From an uncultured Gammaproteobacteria bacterium (GTDB lineage: Bacteria > Pseudomonadota > Gammaproteobacteria > Chromatiales > Chromatiaceae): DNA of 64,000 nucleotides. The DNA lies in assembly GCA_963802205.1 (NCBI GenBank), contig CAWDHW010000017.1, positions 803 to 64,802 on the forward strand, in the 5' to 3' direction. Positions 4,112 to 15,059 of this stretch are shown here, one piece after another (position 1 is the first letter of the stretch; the number at the start of each line of letters is the position of its first letter). Made by a program: the position numbers and the translations under genes. The notes below the pieces were generated by a model. It searched no databases. It saw nothing but the letters and a program-made list of their open reading frames with translations, and was not told the origin of the DNA.

Positions 4112-5170
4112 TCACCCAACCCAGATCTTTTCCCCGTACCCGGTCATCTCCAGATAGCCCCGCCCAACCTGAGGGCCGTCCTCTGCGACCCGCACCGCGC
4201 CCTCCCAGTAGACGGCCCCGGTGGAGCGGCGGCTGTCCAGTTCCTGGTCGTCCATCAGGGGTTGGAGCTGGAGCAGCCGGGTGCCGATGCGGACCCGCCA
4301 CGCCACCGGGTAGGCGATGCCGGTGCGCGGCGAGGTCCAGTAGCGCAGCGGCTCGAAGGCCACGGCCTCCGATGGCAACACCTGTGCACTGCCCCCGCTG
4401 GGCGGAAAGTGGCCGCGGACCAGAAGGGCTGGCCGTCCTGGCCGCGCAGTCGGAAGGCCATCAGGGCGTTGCCGTCGGCGAGATTCAGGCCGACCCAGTC
4501 CCAGCCTTGGGCCCCTTCGGGCAGGAGCTCGCTGGACCATTCGTGGTCCAACTAGGCCAGCCCCGTCACGGCCTGGGGACGGCCGTCCAGGGTCACGCGG
4601 CCGCTGACCTTGAGCTGCGGGCGGCTATAGTAATAGCTCGCGTGGCGCGGGTCCGGGGCCTTGGCGCTGAACCCGGCGAGGCCGTTGAGCAGGGGCGGGC
4701 CGTCGGGGACCAGGGACAGGGCATAAGCGAACCCCTCGCCACGGACCTCCGCCCGATAGCGGTCGTCGGTCTGTTCCAGGCGCCAGTCGCCGATCCACAG
4801 GTGCGTCTGCCCGGTCTCGAAGCCGGCGCGGCCGAACCCGACCCGGGCGGAGCGCTGGTCGTGACGCAGGCGGCCGAGGCGCGGGTCGGCGATGGCCGCA
4901 TGGGCGAGCAGCAACTGGCGCGGTGCGAAGGCGCTGGGGTTGGTCTCCCCGGTGCCCGTGTGCACGCGGAAGAAGGTCGCCGAGGCACTCGGCCGCGGGA
5001 AAGCCACCACCGATGCCCGTGCGCACGCGCAAGAAGGTGGTCTGGAAGCCCAACGGGCTGCCGTCGGGCAAGGTCAGCCAACCTGTGGCGTACCACCACT
5101 CGGTGCGGAAATTGGGGTGTGCGCCGTGATCGGCGGGAAAGGACAGGGCCAGGCCCGGGAGCACCGACGC
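4112..5170 (-). pseudogene. AttH/lipocalin-like (carotenoid 1,2-hydratase-family) protein, multiply disrupted
   Basis: Pieces lie in three frames: [22 protein letters not shown] (ORF 4625..5233), FFRVHTGTGETNPSAFAPRQLLLAHAAIADP... (ORF 4552..5010) and DHEWSSELLPEGAQGWDWVGLNL (ORF 4255..4551). The end piece ...PLRYWTSPRTGIAYPVAWRV...YWEGAV is in ORF 4112..4540. There is an in-frame TAG at 4552-4554 where W is expected. The 5' end is lost at the IS remnant. Confidence 0.75.
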
Positions 5171-5440
5171 CAAGATGACCACGGCCCTGCTCGACCGCCT
5201 CACCCACCACTGCCACATCGTGGAGACCGGCAACGATTCCTACCGCTTCCGCCACAGCAGCGCGACAGCCAAATCCAGGATCAAAGCCAGGGAGCAAACT
5301 AAACGAGGTGGGGCGAACGACGCACCCTTCTGACCGTAGTACCGTTACACTTGTCCACAGCCGCTCCCTGCGCGGAGCAGCCTCTTTCCCTGGTCAATAT
5401 TCAACCGGTACACCTGGTCGGAATTCGACCGGTATCAACA
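5163..5440 (+). mobile_element. IS21-family remnant (last ~52 codons of istB plus terminal repeat region)
   Basis: 5175..5333 encodes [46 protein letters not shown]...-TGA, a typical IstB C-terminus. Downstream direct subrepeats tcaaccggtacac and tcgaccggtatcaac (5401-5440) resemble multi-repeat IS21 ends. No istA and no istB body are present. Confidence 0.6.
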
Positions 5441-6670: not shown

Positions 6671-6882
6671 ATCCGGCCCGAATCTACCCCCAACCGACCG
6701 CCCGTGGATCCCGATCTTCGGTGGTACCAATCCCGGCAGCCCGGAAAAAGGACTTGCGCAGCTCGTGAGATGTGCTATCTATTGCGTACCCCAGCACAAA
6801 AGTCGGGAATTATTCCGACCCGGCGGCGGGGATCGACCCACCTTGTTCGTGCCTCGACCTGACACCATTCCGGAGATCAGAG

Positions 6883-7243
6883 ATGACCAAGAAGACCAGC
6901 CTCAAGCCCGCCGTGGCCGCCGTCGGTTTCGCCCTGGTGGGCAGCCTGGCCGTCGCCAACCTGGCCAATGCCGCCGACAACCCCTTCGGCTCCAGCTCGA
7001 TGAAGAGCGGCTACATGCAACTCGCCCAAGCCACGCAAGAGGGGATGGGTGGCATGTCCGGTGACAAGGCCAAGCAAAGCGGCATGTCGGCACGGCATGT
7101 CCGGCGACAAGGCCAAGAAGGAGGGCAAGTGCGGCGAAGGCAAGTGCGGCGGTGACAAGGCCAAGAAGGAAGGCAAGTGCGGTGAGGGCAAGTGTGGCGG
7201 CGCGAAGAAACCCGCCGAGGGCAAGTGCGGCGGGGCCAAGTAG
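6883..7243 (+). pseudogene. HvfA/bufferin-like RiPP precursor: signal peptide plus 5 x EGKCG core, frameshifted as sequenced
   Basis: GGAG Shine-Dalgarno at 6872-6875. Frame 1 reads [70 protein letters not shown]. Frame 2 reads [52 protein letters not shown]. Length is 1 mod 3, and the switch falls within ggcatgtcggcacggcatgtcc (about 7075-7096). Confidence 0.75.
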
Positions 7244-7265
7244 GCCGCTCCACCCGAAGGCGACC

Positions 7266-8120
7266 GTGAGCGATCGGCAGTTTCCCGTTCACGGCGCCGG
7301 TCTCGGGCTGCGGCGCTCCTTCCTGGAGGCCGCGGTCCAATCCCCGCCGAGCGGGGTTGAGTTCTGGGAGATAGCCCCGGAGAACTGGATCGGGGTGGGC
7401 GGACGTTACGGGCGCCAGTTGCGCGCCCTGACCGAACGCTACCCCTTCGTCTGTCACGGTCTGTCGCTCTCGATCGGCGCGCCGGCACCCCTGGACGAGG
7501 AATTCGTCCTCCGCATCAAGGGGTTTCTGGATACAAACGGCATCCGCGCCTACTCGGAGCACCTGAGCTACTGCTCCGACGACGGCCATCTCTACGACCT
7601 GCTCCCCATCCCCTTCACCGAAGAGGCCGTCCACCACGTCGCCAGCCGGGTGCGGCGGGTGCAGGACCTTCTGGAAAGACGGATCGCGCTGGAGAACGTC
7701 TCCTACTACGCGGCGCCCGGTCAGGAAATGCCGGAGATCGACTTCATCAACGCCGTGCTTGAGGAGGCCGACTGCGACCTCCTGCTCGATATCAACAACA
7801 TCTATGTGAATGCCATCAACCACCGTTATGACCCGGTGGATTTCCTGGCCCGACTTCCCGCGAGGCGCATCCTCTATGCCCACATCGCCGGGCACTACGA
7901 GGAGGCGCCGGACCTGCGTGTGGACACCCACGGGGCGGATGTGATCGACCCCGTCTGGACCCTGTTGGTCGAGGCCTATGCCCGCTTCGGGGTCTTTCCG
8001 ACCCTGCTGGAGCGCGACTTCAACATCCCCCCGCTGGAGGTCCTGACGGAGGAGGTCGGGACCATCGCCCGGCTCCAGGCCGAGGCCAACCGCGTGTCGC
8101 TGCGCCTGGCCCATGGTTGA
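7266..8120 (+). CDS. DUF692/MNIO-family RiPP maturase (HvfB/MbnB/BufB-like)
   Basis: GTG 7266 within ORF 7152..8120. [10 protein letters not shown]...[10 protein letters not shown]...[11 protein letters not shown]...YSEHLSYC...ALENVSYY...[14 protein letters not shown]...HIAGH...DTHG are hallmark DUF692 TIM-barrel metal-ligand segments. Confidence 0.9.
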
Positions 8121-8910
8121 GCCGCCCTCTCTCGCCGGGGGCTCCTTCACCGAGATCCAGTTCGGTTTCGCGGCCCACATTCGTGATCCCGCGGTGCAGC
8201 CAGCCCCCACGGACGTGGAGGACAGGCGCATGGCGATCTACCGCGAGTTGGTCTTCAACAACGTCGAGTCCCTGCTCGCCGGCAACTTCCCGGTGACCCG
8301 TGAGGTCCTCGGGGAGGAACACTGGGCGGGGCTGGTGCGGGGATTCTTCATCCACCACCGTTGCACCACCCCTCTCTTTCACGAACTGGGGCAGGAGTTT
8401 CTCGCTTACCTCCAGGGGCGCGGCGAGGGGAAGGGCGATCCGCCCTTTCTTCTGGAGTTGGCCCATTACGAGTGGGTCGAGCTGGCCCTGGACATTGCCG
8501 AAGACAGCCTTGATCTTGCCGAAATCGATCCCAACGGCGACCTGCTTGCGGGCATCCCCGTGGTCTCGCCGGTCGCCTGGTCGCTCGGCTACCGCTTCCC
8601 GGTCCACCGCATCGGGCCTGACTTCAAGCCCGAGCGACCGGACCCTGAGCCCACGCGCCTGGTGGTCTACCGCACCCGCCCGGGGGACGTGGAGTTCCTG
8701 GAGGTCAACGCCGTCACCGCACGCCTGCTGGAACTCCTGGACCAGAGCACCCTTGGCTCCGGCCGGGACGCCCTGACACGGATCGCCGCCGAGTTGCGCC
8801 ACCCGAGCCCGGATCAGGTCATTGCCGGAGGGGCAGAACTATTGGCGGACCTGCGTCGGCGCCAGATCCTGGTCGGGACCCGTCTTCGGTGTAGCCCGAT
8901 GTCCGATTAA
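8113..8910 (+). CDS. DUF2063-domain RiPP maturation partner (HvfC/BufC-like)
   Basis: Overlaps the MNIO stop by 8 nt. The N-terminal segment [10 protein letters not shown]...[40 protein letters not shown] is typical of the DUF2063 proteins that follow DUF692 genes. Confidence 0.85.
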
Positions 8911-8944
8911 TTCTACGTTGCAAGTGCCATAGGCTAAGTGCTGG

Positions 8945-9160
8945 ATGTTGCAGAGTTTGCTGGTTTCCGGTCAGTACCTGTCAGCCAACCGGACATTGTT
9001 AACCTTCCAGACCGAGGCCGGCCGGCTGGTGGTCCTGAACAACGGCATCGAGTTTGCCGCCACCTATTTTGTGATGCTCCTGGCCCTGTTCTTCCTTGGC
9101 GGGGGGCGTTATTTCAGCGCAGATTTCTGGATTGCCCGTCGCTGGCGGAGCCACGCCTGA
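8945..9160 (+). pseudogene. DoxX-family membrane protein, C-terminal fragment only
   Basis: The 71-aa ORF ends NNGIEFAATYFVMLLALFFLGGGRYFSADFWIARR, like the last TM helix of DoxX. Only ~250 nt separate the neighbouring genes, so the N-terminal two-thirds are missing. GC is locally lower at 8911-9010. Confidence 0.45.
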
Positions 9161-10546: not shown

Positions 10547-11459
10547 ATGGCCATGTCCCCCGATCTACATACCCACACCGTTGCGTCCGACGGGACCCTC
10601 ACCCCGACGGAGCTGGTCGCACGGGCGTCCGCGGCCGGGATCGAGGTCCTGGCGGTGACCGATCACGACACCGTAGACGGTCTGGCGGAGGCCATCTGTG
10701 GCCGCCGCAGCGGCCGGCATCACCCTGGTCCCGGGGGCCGAACTATCGGTTACCTGGGGCGGGCGCACCATCCACGTTGTCGGACTCCACCTGGACCCGG
10801 GCTGCGCCGAGTTGGGCCTGGGCCTCAAACGGATCATCGCCTTCCGGCACTGGCGCGCGACGGAGATCGGGCGACGCCTGGAGCGCCACGGCATCCCAGA
10901 CACCTACGCCGGGGCCCGCGCCCTGGCCGGTGGCGGCCTGGTGGGGCGGAGCCACTTCGCACGGGTCCTGGTGCGCCGCGGCCTGGCCCAGAGCGAGCGC
11001 GACGTCTTCAAGCACTTTTTGGTGCAGGGTAAGCCTGGTCATGTCCCTGGCGATTGGGCGACCTTGGATGAGGCCCTGGGCTGGATCCGTGCCGCCGGCG
11101 GCCAGGCGGTGATCGCCCACCCGGCCCGCTATGGCCTGAACCGGACCAGGCTGCGCCGGCTCCTCGGGGAGTTCCGCGACTTAGGCGGGGCCGCGCTCGA
11201 GGTGGTCTGCGGGAGTCACAGCAAGGACGACGCCCTGGTCTTTGCCCGCCACGCCCGCGAGATCGGCCTGCTGGCCTCCGCCGGGTCCGACTACCACGGC
11301 CCCGAGTCCCCCTGGCTGGATCTCGGCCGCTTGCCGGCGCTGCCTGACGGTTGTACCCCCGTCTGGGCCGACTGGCCGGGTGCATCGCGTCCACGGGTGG
11401 CCCCGAACCCGATGCCCGGCATTGCACTGTCGCAGGCACGCCTGCCATCGTTGGCTTAA
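10547..11459 (+). pseudogene. PHP-domain phosphoesterase (TrpH/YciV-like), one frameshift near 10695
   Basis: The N-terminus MAMSPDLHTHTVASDGTLTPTELVARASAAGIEVLAVTDHDTVDGLAEA is in ORF 10547..11032. The remainder AAAAAGITLVPGAELSV...IHVVGLH...AHPARY...SGSDYH is in ORF 10698..11459. Length is 1 mod 3. Confidence 0.85.
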
Positions 11460-13399: not shown

Positions 13400-14396
13400 A
13401 TGGGGGCCCAGGTCGCCAGCCTGAGCTGTACGGAGCCGTCGCCGGCCCAACGCACCCGCTTCGGTAGAATCGGGCCCCCGGCAGGGCGAGATTCCCTTCG
13501 CCGTCGTTCAAGGGTCCCCGCTGCTCAGCCTGCCCCTCGACCTCTACATCCCGCCGGATGCCCTGGAGGTCTTCCTCGACGCCTTCGAGGGTCCGCTCGA
13601 CCTGCTGCTGTATCTGATCAAGCGCCAGAACCTCGACATCCTCGAGATCCCGGTGGCTCAGATCACCGACCAGTACATGGTCTACGTGGACCTGATGAGC
13701 GTGCTTCGCCTGGAACTGGCGGCGGAGTACCTGGTCATGGCCGCCATGCTGGCGGAGATCAAGTCGCGCATGCTCCTGCCGCGCCCGCCCGGGGTCAGCG
13801 AGGATGAGGAAGACCCGCGCGCCGAACTGATTCGCCGACTGCTGGAGTACGAGCGCTTCAAGGGCGCCGCCCAGGACATCGACGCCCTGCCGCGGCTGGA
13901 ACGCGACCACCATGTCACCCAGGTGGCGGTGCCGCCGGGGCACACCCAGCGCGTCCCCCCCGCGGTGGACCTGCGCGAGGTCCTGCTGGCGCTGCGCGAT
14001 GTCCTGGCTCGGGCCGATCTCTTCACCAGCCACAGGGTGGAGCACGAGTCCCTGTCGCTGCGCGAGCGCATGTCGCTGGTGCTGGCGCGCCTGGCCGGCG
14101 GCGAGTTTCTGCTGTTCACCGACCTGTTCCCCTTCAGCGAGGGACGCGCCGGGGTGGTGGTCACCTTTCTCGCCATCCTGGAACTGACACGCAGCGCCTC
14201 CCTGGAACTGGTCCAAGGGGAGCCCTTCTCCCCCATCCATGTTCGACTGCGCCCGACCGAGCACCGCGGCGCCCCCGGGCCCGGGAGCGAGTTCGAGGAC
14301 GGCGAGACGACTGGCTCGCTGAGGGCGGGGAGGGGGCCTGGGAAGACATTCCCAACCCCGGCGCTGCGGGACGACGGCCTGGAGGAATCGCCGATG
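13400..14396 (+). pseudogene. scpA: Segregation and condensation protein A, start and stop both displaced by frame changes
   Basis: The conserved body (PLDLYIPPDALEVFLDAFEGPLDLLLYLIKRQNLDILEIPVAQITDQY...) is in frame 0 but has no ATG/GTG/TTG before GTG 13653. ATG 13400 lies in frame 2, across a C5 run at 13475-13479. Frame 0 has no stop before scpB, while TGA 14395-14397 (ATGA with the scpB start) is in frame 1. Confidence 0.7.
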
Positions 14397-15059
14397 ACCA
14401 CGCCCCCGCTGAAGCTCATCTGCGAGGGCGCCCTGCTCGCCGCCGGCGGGCCCCTGACCCTGGACCAGATCCTTGCCCTGTTCCCGGACGAGGAACGCCC
14501 GTCCCGCGAGGACATCCACGCCGCCATCGTCGCCCTGCGCCAGGACTGCGAGGGCCGTGCCCTGGAGCTGACTGAGGTCGCCGGGGGCTGGCGCCTCCAG
14601 GTCCGCCGCGAGATCGCACCCTGGGTCGGGCGCCTGTGGGACGAGCGCCCCCAGCGCTACTCCCGCGCCCTGCTGGAGACCCTGGCCCTGATTGCCTACC
14701 GCCAGCCCATCACCCGCGGCGAGATCGAGGACATCCGCGGCGTGGCCGTCAACAGCCAGATCGTCAAGACCCTGATGGAGCGCGAGTGGATCCGCGTCGT
14801 CGGCCATCGCGACGTCCCCGGGCGTCCGGCCCTGCTCGCCACCACCCGGCGCTTTCTCGACTACTTCGGTCTGCGCTCCCTGAACGACCTGCCGCCCCTG
14901 GCGGAGATCCGCGACCCCTCCTTTCTGGGCGAGGACGCAGGCGGGGCCGACGCCATCATGGGCGATCTGTTCGCCTCGCTGGCCGTTATCCCGGCCCCAG
15001 ATCCAGATCAGCCCCAGCCCCCCATTCAGCTAAGCCCACCGGAGATCGACCATGACTGA
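14394..15059 (+). CDS. scpB: Segregation and condensation protein B
   Basis: GGAGGA Shine-Dalgarno at 14381-14386, then ATG 14394. MTTPPLKLICEGALLAAGGPLTLDQI...RALLETLALIAYRQPITRGEIEDIRGV...LLATTRRFLDYFGL matches the ScpB winged-helix repeats. It forms part of the continuous ORF 13653..15059. Confidence 0.85.
   Translation: MTTPPLKLICEGALLAAGGPLTLDQILALFPDEERPSREDIHAAIVALRQDCEGRALELTEVAGGWRLQVRREIAPWVGRLWDERPQRYSRALLETLALIAYRQPITRGEIEDIRGVAVNSQIVKTLMEREWIRVVGHRDVPGRPALLATTRRFLDYFGLRSLNDLPPLAEIRDPSFLGEDAGGADAIMGDLFASLAVIPAPDPDQPQPPIQLSPPEIDHD

Follow-up and report, generated by a model that had tools for sequence, protein, structure and literature searches.

The EGKCG-containing gene cluster studied here raises two questions: whether it represents a new kind of copper-peptide system, and whether its precursor gene is usable as assembled. 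We addressed both within the window, i.e., the whole stretch of 64,000 nt that was analysed, and by comparison with related contigs. The locus is very probably a chromosomal operon of hvfA, hvfB and hvfC that ends in a dead stub of hvfX (Table 1) and belongs to the EGKCG (Lys-Cys) branch of the captophorins, the copper-binding peptides made by MNIOs (types: oxazolin, fontiphorin and gonophorin). Gene sets of this kind are well studied and very widespread, the present one is an ordinary example, and the argument for novelty made in an earlier, sequence-only reading of this DNA is not supported. As assembled, hvfA is a pseudogene, and the window cannot make the secreted peptide.

Table 1. Features of the hvf locus and their positions in the window (nt).
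Feature	Coordinates	Strand	Remarks
Conserved upstream block	6753..6825	+	Candidate promoter and conserved GTCGGGAATTA element
hvfA, 5' part (frame 1)	6883..7079	+	Signal peptide, NPF..GYM box, first 10-residue unit; ORF translation
Frame-shifting 13-nt insertion CGGCATGTCGGCA	7080..7092	+	Absent from conspecific contigs; DNA alignment
hvfA, 3' part (frame 2)	7093..7243	+	GMSGDKAKK, then five EGKCG motifs; stop codon 7241-7243
hvfB, MNIO (DUF692) maturase	7266..8120	+	PF05114, NF003818
hvfC, DUF2063/RRE partner (PME1 type)	8113..8910	+	PF09836, PF22106, NF050145
hvfX (DoxX-type) relic	8945..9160	+	Homology only over the last ~50 residues (9002-9151); ~450 nt missing

The elements previously read in the precursor were all found in translation: a signal-peptide-like N-terminus (MTKKTSLKPAVAAVGFALVGSLAVANLANA, followed by AD), an NPF...GYM segment and GMSGDKAK units. 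The signal peptide was assigned by eye, based on a KK n-region, a hydrophobic core and a cleavage site between ANA and AD. Likewise, each of the five cysteines of the HvfA core lies within an EGKCG motif in the translated, frame-corrected sequence. The 361 nt from 6883 to 7243, which had been taken for one gene, do not constitute a single ORF, as the halves are in different frames. The frame-1 ORF containing the signal peptide, the NPF box and the first repeat runs to 7155 and ends in an Arg-rich nonsense tail, and the Cys core is located in the +1 frame (ORF 7049-7243). Because of this arrangement, the HvfA peptide given in the sequence-only reading is a frame-corrected reconstruction; the correction was merely hinted at there, and the disruption of the assembled gene was missed. 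A continuous ORF joining the Sec signal peptide to the Cys core was not found in the window and was found in conspecific contigs.

We assessed the identity of the encoded proteins with DUF692, DUF2063, DoxX and HvfA/BufA-type profiles, and the HvfA-family domain, HvfB and HvfC all exceeded the curated cutoffs. The frame-corrected HvfA was matched by NF050137 (KCGExKCG_twice) in three stretches (52.3 bits, cutoff 19.5, E = 3.3e-14). The HvfA equivalog model, NF050188, aligned to the repeat region alone and yielded 19.4 bits against a cutoff of 95; as it falls below this cutoff, the precursor is regarded as a family member and not as an ortholog of oxazolin itself. HvfB scored 439.9 bits with NF003818 (HvfB family; cutoff 360, E = 3.4e-132) and 349.6 bits with PF05114 (1.3e-104, profile positions 1-262 of 263). 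HvfC scored 318 bits with NF050145 (cutoff 142, E = 4.5e-95) and was also matched, over a DUF2063 N-domain and an NGO1945-type C-domain, by PF09836 (2.5e-27) and PF22106 (7.1e-31), and by the solved structure 3DEE (NGO1945, 8e-11). The precursor lies directly upstream of this MNIO and DUF2063/PME1 pair (hvfA stop 7243, hvfB start 7266), and the 8-nt overlap reported between hvfB and hvfC is correct.

The solved structure nearest to HvfB was 3BWW (8e-77), with the HGLS, EHLS, ALEN, DINN, HIAGH, VDTHG and ERDF blocks kept in the alignment. Site-3 ligands of HvfB have been assigned to N175/D242/H244 (bioRxiv 10.64898/2026.07.17.739211), and a catalytic Asp and the RR and F residues underlying Lys-Cys specificity have been described for FonB (PMC13097082). 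Iron-ligand, catalytic and specificity residues were found in the window protein, where DINN, VDTHG, ERDF and LRRS are present and aligned to 3BWW. Its RR (residues 16-17) and D-F (ERDFN) are the counterparts of residues that mapping in FonB identified as determinants of Lys-Cys substrates and as the catalytic base (PMC13097082).

The sequence-only reading had named HvfABC and the bufferin operons as examples of this architecture. Its family assignment is right: the operon is of the HvfABC type, with all four parts matching dedicated NCBIfam models (the HvfX part below its cutoff). A bufferin operon (BufABC[D]) would share the A-B-C-DoxX architecture and the Sec-exported precursor, MNIOs of both groups belong to one large sequence cluster (PMC12452194), and the BufB model score was strong (NF050167, 269.5 bits). 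However, this score is below the cutoff of 310, whereas the HvfB score of 439.9 bits is above its cutoff of 360. The precursor also has no match to DUF2282 or any other Pfam family and contains EGKCG repeats, not Buf1/Buf2 folds, and we consider a bufferin operon highly improbable. Methanobactin (MbnABC) was tried as a further candidate and rejected: the MbnB model TIGR04159 gave 36.3 bits (cutoff 325), and the precursor bears a signal peptide, not a leader.

A GTDB scan with HvfB yielded nothing closer than 80% identity among the matches listed. For HvfB homologues in other genomes, again among the matches listed, an EGKCG-type ORF was found beside hvfB in 69 of 80 loci and an HvfC match in 79 of 80. 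An NPF..GY box was present in 55 of the 69 adjoining precursors, the number of motifs per precursor ranged from 2 to 15 (median 6), and the Met fraction was equal to or higher than that of the window in 25 of 55, all among the matches listed. The Met-containing spacer and the five motifs, which had been named as distinguishing features, are typical of the family by these same counts. The EGKCG family comprises ~2,000 non-redundant members (PMC12452194). As about half of the Pseudomonadota reference genomes contain MNIO-PME1 loci (PMC13097082), the free-living host, also named as distinctive, is unremarkable. The family has been characterised in experiments, NCBIfam and Pfam include curated models of it, and thousands of genomes encode it; the locus has little significance beyond its correct annotation.

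We compared the locus with four groups of known systems. The oxazolin locus HvfABCX of nontypeable Haemophilus influenzae (PMC11252979) also has a Sec-signal precursor with paired 10-residue motifs, an HvfB-family MNIO, an HvfC protein (DUF2063/RRE) and an HvfX-type DoxX gene. In the window, however, hvfX lies downstream and is a ~50-residue relic, whereas the H. influenzae DoxX tag (NTHI1440) immediately precedes hvfA (NTHI1441). The window hvfA differs in being frameshifted, in having an N-region with an NPF..GYM box and without a Cys pair, in containing a Cys-free GMS/GDKAK spacer, and in encoding five cysteines, not six, with the last motif unpaired. Fontiphorin (FonABC, Fontimonas thermophila) and gonophorin (Neisseria gonorrhoeae) resemble it in their EGKCG 5-mer repeats and MNIO and PME1 pair (PMC13097082) but differ in motif number and spacing. 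Equivalents of FonB R15/R16 and D249/F250 are kept in the window HvfB, and its product would be expected, like theirs, to be a multi-5-thiooxazole Cu(I) binder. The Buf_EGKCG/oxazolin type 1 gene clusters (PMC12452194) contain a precursor, MNIO, DUF2063 and optional DoxX in varied combinations; the repeat has 17 residues in that paper versus 16 (48 nt) in the window, and a precursor of 115 aa is among the shorter ones in a range of 31-506 residues. The bufferins BufA1/BufA2 with BufBC(D) of Caulobacter vibrioides (PMC11626156) share a Sec-exported precursor, an MNIO with a DUF2063 partner, conversion of Cys to thiooxazole and copper sequestration, but their precursors have DUF2282 or a 6/12-Cys fold, which is lacking in the window, where the BufB model is below its cutoff.

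The oxazolone/thioamide chemistry cited in the sequence-only reading is outdated, as later work reassigned the modification in HvfA to 5-thiooxazole (bioRxiv 10.64898/2026.06.05.730506 and 10.64898/2026.07.17.739211) and the class is now named captophorins. The six EGKCG cysteines of HvfA are all targets of HvfBC, and the modified peptide binds Cu(I) (PMC11252979). The formation of 5-thiooxazole needs a mixed-valent diiron cofactor that is formed only with HvfC (bioRxiv 10.64898/2026.07.17.739211; 10.64898/2026.06.05.730506; PMC13097082). By homology, we infer modification, export and copper binding for the window locus as well. As in the characterised homologues, HvfA would be synthesised with a signal peptide for Sec export. 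HvfB, a diiron MNIO complexed with and activated by the RRE-containing HvfC, would oxidise each EGKCG cysteine to 5-thiooxazole while the peptide is still in the cytoplasm. The modified peptide would then be exported, with the signal peptide cut off between ANA and AD, and its thiooxazoles would capture Cu(I) either periplasmically or extracellularly, most likely sequestering excess copper.

The DoxX fragment noted at the end of the locus proved to be the last quarter of HvfX. It scored 57.9 bits with NF050144, below the cutoff of 80, and covered only profile positions 118-164 of 165; in tblastn searches with full-length HvfX proteins (~197-201 aa), only residues ~150-197 matched. A full-length HvfX (~165-200 aa, multi-pass) was not found at 8945-9160, and no other copy was found in the 64-kb window. 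The relic is also present in the conspecific contig L081, with the ATG lost and an R-to-C change in the GGGRY motif, and the same change was observed in four further contigs (L101, L103, L104 and L107). In sister lineages (L089 and L090), the stub is gone entirely. The relic is thus lineage-wide, and hvfX was lost in this lineage. No repeat or mobile-element signature was found at the junction between hvfC and the relic. In Caulobacter, DoxX is dispensable for both the copper phenotype and the modification (PMC11626156), and the natural loss of hvfX fits this dispensability. The hvfB and hvfC genes are intact and under purifying selection, with dN/dS values versus L081 of 0.21 (hvfB) and 0.31 (hvfC); this points to an operon that is functional in the species. 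Retention of hvfABC under such selection after the loss of hvfX lends natural-history support to the dispensability of DoxX in captophorin maturation and function.

At the species level, hvfA is an intact gene encoding 105 or 115 aa, with a Cys-free GMS/GDKAK spacer of variable repeat number. Intact precursors of these two lengths (P0001, 115 aa; P0006, 105 aa) are encoded by nine metagenome contigs of the same species (DNA ~97% identical), and the 5' part of the window gene is identical or near-identical to both. P0001 was read on 12 contigs. The exact truncated frame-1 product (P0010) was detected on one contig only among ~15 billion catalogued proteins. The 13-nt insertion has no counterpart in L081-L088, eight contigs that are ~97% identical and come from at least seven samples, and another contig (L108) has neither the insertion nor one 30-nt unit. 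The frameshift is private to the window assembly. A programmed +1 ribosomal frameshift was rejected, as hvfA simply reads in frame in the conspecifics and there is no arrangement of a stop codon or SD stimulator. The insertion sits within a tandem array with a 48-nt period, and, being a partial duplicate of the CGGCATGTC that follows, it cannot be placed exactly within 7080-7101. Three hvfA length alleles (0, +30 and +43 nt) were observed in near-identical backgrounds.

Regarding the origin of the insertion, we lean towards an assembly or consensus error, because a PHP gene 3.6 kb away has a second private frameshift with clustered mismatches (the gene is intact, 301 aa, in four conspecific contigs) and a CrtC-like gene is the third split gene in the window. 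Against an artefact, the comparison of the window with conspecifics over ~7 kb revealed no scatter of in-gene homopolymer indels, as would be seen in a generally error-prone assembly. A real strain-specific null mutation is a serious contender, although we rate it lower than an error. It could form part of reductive decay in the strain, with hvfX being lost first, lineage-wide, and hvfA then being knocked out by strand slippage that added 13 nt to the tandem-repeat spacer, on the way to the complete loss observed in a relative. We find this course of events possible but somewhat doubtful. The position of the insertion inside the array, the three length alleles and the contigs without even an hvfX stub are compatible with it, as are an IS21 IstB fragment and the two other split genes nearby. 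Decay in the clade is plausible given the close relative L099, from which hvfA and hvfB have been deleted and in which hvfC persists solely as a fused relic flanked by DUF1841 and Host_attach. However, hvfB and hvfC of the window are intact (dN/dS 0.2-0.3), the frameshifted product is restricted to a single contig, and the private frameshift of the neighbouring PHP gene, with its clustered mismatches, resembles a consensus error.

An entirely speculative and very improbable scenario is that the frame-2 ORF (7049-7243) is translated alone, yielding a non-exported cytoplasmic Cys-core peptide that would still be modified by HvfBC. This ORF has a GTG start with an SD-like string (AGAGGGG) 5-11 nt upstream, and HvfBC is able to modify HvfA fragments without the signal peptide and N-terminal region (PMC11252979). 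Yet the SD-like string consists of QEGMG codons shared by all intact alleles, the precursor of the conspecifics is a single continuous chain that is exported, and a signal-less member would be without precedent.

The block upstream of hvfA is kept between the window lineage and two more distant contigs (L091/L092, HvfC 69% identical), whereas the flanking intergenic DNA has diverged. The putative promoter within it consists of TTGCGC (6754-6759), a 16-nt spacer and TGcTATCTA with the -10 at 6776-6781; as a consensus promoter scan yielded nothing at its own threshold, this promoter is a candidate only. A Shine-Dalgarno sequence (GGAGA) is located at 6872-6876. The terminator scan returned only chance-level terminator-like sites, all of them within the hvfX relic, and neither a copper-responsive regulator nor another copper gene adjoins the operon.

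In a further reading, which we regard as unlikely, the GMS/GDKAK spacer of this clade, which has no Cys and is polymorphic in repeat number, would provide a second Cu(I) site based on thioethers or serve as a linker of tunable length. The spacer evolves by slippage and is apparently traded against thiooxazole sites. If this reading is true, the window, its hvfX-less relatives and the operon-deleted L099 would constitute a natural series showing the stepwise loss of a captophorin system under relaxed copper stress. As a slippage hotspot giving rise to length alleles and, in the window, to a frameshift, the spacer calls for caution in automated RiPP precursor calling, and the intact 115-aa allele is preferable to the window sequence for cloning of the system. 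Examples of spacer slippage include MGGMSG, GMSGMSGMSGMSGD in L089, and P0005, which has 8 Met and only 3 Cys.

The locus adds one more member to a well-known, curated family; its precursor frameshift is private to the window and possibly artefactual, and its hvfX relic is lineage-wide. It comprised four co-directional elements on the forward strand at 6883–9160. The start of hvfA was preceded by GGAGA at 6872–6876. The sequence-only reading, whose interpretation was partly supported, had placed one precursor gene at 6883–7243, and its observation was partly confirmed: these 361 nt do not form one ORF, as the halves lie in different frames, and the frame holding the signal peptide runs on as an Arg-rich nonsense tail to a stop at 7155. 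All parts of the peptide it described are present, but as a frame-corrected reconstruction rather than a single ORF, and the secreted product cannot be made from the window as assembled. The 8 nt overlap it reported between hvfB and hvfC was found.

Features of the locus and the broken genes around it
Feature	Position	Strand	Description
CrtC-like lipocalin-domain gene	4552–5233	-	Split over two frames, break at about 5010
IS21-family IstB ATPase remnant	5175–5333	+	52-aa ORF holding the final 29 residues of IstB (PF01695 positions 208–236 of 238)
hvfA, 5' part	ATG at 6883	+	MTKKTSLKPAVAAVGFALVGSLAVANLANA: signal peptide before the cleavage mark, then 39 residues
hvfA, Cys-rich core	7049–7243 (ORF)	+	49 residues; +1 frame relative to the signal-peptide part
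hvfB	7266–8120	+	MNIO maturase
hvfC	8113–8910	+	DUF2063 partner
hvfX stub	8945–9160	+	71-codon ORF; partial match to the HvfX family
PHP-domain (TrpH/YciV-like) gene	10547–11459	+	Frameshifted, break at about 10695
ScpA/ScpB	13653–15059	+	Single ORF; ScpA profile positions 35–246 over residues 1–200, ScpB over residues 253–421

Family membership was assessed via Pfam and the curated NCBIfam models, the latter being more specific. In Pfam, the hvfB product matched PF05114 (MbnB_TglH_ChrH) over its full length (1.3e-104), and the hvfC product matched PF09836 (DUF2063, renamed HvfC_N) and PF22106 (NGO1945_C, renamed HvfC_C). The NCBIfam models bore out the earlier call of an HvfABC-type copper-peptide operon: scores exceeded the cutoffs for the HvfB-family MNIO maturase (NF003818, 439.9 bits, cutoff 360), the HvfC family (NF050145, 318 bits, cutoff 142) and, with the frame-corrected precursor, the HvfA-family domain KCGExKCG_twice (NF050137, 52.3 bits, cutoff 19.5). 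The H. influenzae HvfA equivalog model gave the precursor 19.4 bits, against a cutoff of 95. What had been read as a DoxX fragment matched only the C-terminal portion of the HvfX family model (NF050144, positions 118–164 of 165; 57.9 bits, below the cutoff of 80). Scores for the bufferin maturase (BufB, 269.5 bits, cutoff 310), MbnB (36 bits, cutoff 325), ApyH and ChrH models were all below cutoff.

The nearest solved structures were 3BWW, a Histophilus somni MNIO, for the hvfB product (8e-77) and 3DEE, NGO1945, for the hvfC product (8e-11); both are structural references in the Hvf and captophorin literature (bioRxiv 10.64898/2026.07.17.739211; PMC13097082). Alignment with 3BWW showed that HvfB of the window keeps the HGLS, EHLS, ALEN, DINN, HIAGH, VDTHG and ERDF blocks, which include the equivalents of HvfB N175/D242/H244 and of R15/R16 and D249/F250 in FonB, the MNIO of the fontiphorin system. 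The FonB residues have been linked to catalysis and Lys-Cys substrate selectivity (PMC13097082).

In nontypeable H. influenzae, each of the six EGKCG cysteines in HvfA is modified by HvfBC, and the resulting peptide binds Cu(I) (PMC11252979). The oxazolone/thioamide chemistry quoted in the sequence-only reading is the original assignment and is outdated; two groups have reassigned the modification as 5-thiooxazole, and captophorins is now the class name covering bufferin, oxazolin, fontiphorin and gonophorin (PMC13097082; bioRxiv 10.64898/2026.06.05.730506; 10.64898/2026.07.17.739211). More than 24,000 MNIO-PME1 loci (PME1 being the DUF2063 partner) are known, about half of the reference genomes of Pseudomonadota carry such loci, and EGKCG is the commonest repeat motif (PMC13097082). 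About 2,000 non-redundant members make up the Buf_EGKCG/oxazolin precursor family, whose BGCs contain precursor, MNIO, DUF2063 and DoxX genes 'in various combinations' (PMC12452194). Gene identities, catalytic-residue conservation, operon structure and selection were observed here; by analogy with characterised homologues, cytoplasmic HvfB-HvfC would convert the Cys of each EGKCG motif to a 5-thiooxazole, the peptide would be exported by Sec and its signal peptide cleaved between ANA and AD, and the five thiooxazoles would bind Cu(I), most likely sequestering excess copper.

A search of the public protein collection with the frame-corrected precursor returned a protein identical to the truncated frame-1 product that the window encodes (P0010), on one NCBI/ENA contig only, and two intact conspecific precursors, P0001 (115 aa, 12 contigs) and P0006 (105 aa). 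Of the contigs with P0001, eight (drawn from at least seven samples) were ~97% identical to the window in DNA, and the sole hvfA indel separating them from it was a 13 nt insertion (CGGCATGTCGGCA) present only in the window. The hvfA of the conspecific contig L108 was otherwise that of the window, minus 43 nt (a single 30 nt unit together with these 13 nt). The frameshift is thus confined to the window assembly, and the species carries in-frame hvfA length alleles.

We somewhat favour an artefact of assembly or consensus: neither hvfB nor hvfC is disrupted, the PHP-domain gene 3.6 kb downstream of hvfA is likewise frameshifted in the window only, and the CrtC-like gene is split too. The N-terminal 48 aa of the PHP protein lie in ORF 10547–11032 and the remainder in ORF 10698–11459, where four conspecific contigs have an intact 301-aa ORF; at the break, GCCATCTGTGGCC in the window replaces conspecific GCTG-CCGCGGCC, with clustered mismatches and one extra base. 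The CrtC-like ORFs 4625–5233 and 4552–5010 cover profile positions 1–30 and 21–160, respectively. A real mutation in hvfA is only a little less probable, given that the insertion site is a repeat hotspot (inside a tandem array with a period of 48 nt), that the other coding regions compared (~7 kb) have no scattered homopolymer indels, and that the locus is demonstrably decayed in relatives. Elsewhere in the window, the N-terminus of ScpA appears to be missing, with scpA and scpB in one frame; either a further indel or a natural fusion could account for this.

We compared the locus with 80 loci fetched via HvfB similarity alone, among the matches listed. An HvfX match lay near the operon in 45 of them; full-length HvfX in related loci has about 196–202 aa, of which the stub covers only residues ~150–197. 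A second hvfX copy was not found within the 64 kb window. The stub also occurs in conspecific contigs, and differs between the window and one of these, L081, at four positions (three nonsynonymous, one synonymous). The L081 stub lacks the ATG and has GGGCY in place of the conserved GGGRY motif; the stubs of L101, L103, L104 and L107 share this GGGCY. The DNA separating hvfC from the homologous portion of the relic differs at ~16 of 50 positions (8925–8975 against 2944–2994 of L081), compared with 1–3% in the flanks; this AT-rich stretch has no repeat elsewhere in the window. The stub is wholly absent from sister lineages with nth-DUF1841-hvfABC-Host_attach synteny (L089/L090, HvfC 89% identical; L091/L092, 69%). 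In a close relative, metagenome contig Ga0105090_10102625 (L099, 1–1790), hvfA and hvfB are deleted and hvfC is a fused relic (residues ~30–48 joined to ~172–261) between the same flanking genes (DUF1841 92% and Host_attach 93% identical). By contrast, dN/dS between the window and L081 was 0.21 for hvfB and 0.31 for hvfC, indicating that the species keeps hvfABC even though it lacks hvfX. This fits the published finding that in Caulobacter neither the modification nor the copper phenotype requires DoxX (BufD1) (PMC11626156).

The setting is core chromosomal. On the upstream side are nth (endonuclease III), a DUF1841 gene, the IstB C-terminal fragment (an insertion-sequence remnant just upstream of nth) and the split CrtC-like gene; downstream follow a Host_attach/baeRF12 gene, a cNMP-binding protein (reverse strand), the PHP gene, a Sua5/YrdC-type gene, trpS and scpAB, and further on pgi, zwf, glgA and PBP1b. 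Among the neighbouring genes examined, no copper gene or regulator adjoined the operon. A ~70 nt block upstream of hvfA (6753–6825) is conserved to relatives with 69% HvfC identity, whereas flanking intergenic DNA is not. Within it are TTGCGC-16 nt-TGcTATCTA and a short GGAAT-T-ATTCC inverted repeat, GTCGGGAATTA. The block is a candidate promoter or operator, but a consensus promoter scan made no call there.

The Met-rich spacer and motif number, proposed as distinguishing features, proved common in the family. An EGKCG-type ORF lay just upstream of hvfB in 69 of the 80 loci, with 2–15 motifs per precursor (median six). The (E/D)NPF..(S)GY(M) box followed the signal peptide in 55 of these 69, most of the other 14 being cut by contig ends. 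Median Met fraction after the box was 4.1%, and 25 of the 55 reached at least the 4.3% of the window; strongly Met-rich spacers occur elsewhere (23 residues in L060; MKK/MKH spacers in L036 and L055). The closest 121 catalogued precursors had the box in 91% and at least the window's Met fraction in 40. The clade-specific feature is instead the Cys-free GMS/GDKAK spacer, which differs in its number of units from one close relative to another (P0001–P0007, P0009, L089). Near-identical strains, including L108, have alleles of 0, +30 and +43 nt at 7040–7110, and variation is wider across the clade, up to GMSGMSGMSGMSGD; the P0005 precursor has eight Met and only three Cys.

In six related precursors (L034, L038, L041, L044, L059, L061), which retain the signal peptide and NPF..GYM box, blocks of EGKCG repeats are separated by an EF-hand-like DADGDGK..DKNGDG insert. 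In described fusions, by contrast, the EF-hands are C-terminal to a short EGKCG domain after a predicted transmembrane helix (PMC12452194). In some related genomes hvfABC occurs twice, as separate loci on different contigs: L001 and L002 in the same MAG, and L007 and L009 in Lamprobacter modestohalophilus. The precursors of L001, L002 and L003 are near-identical.
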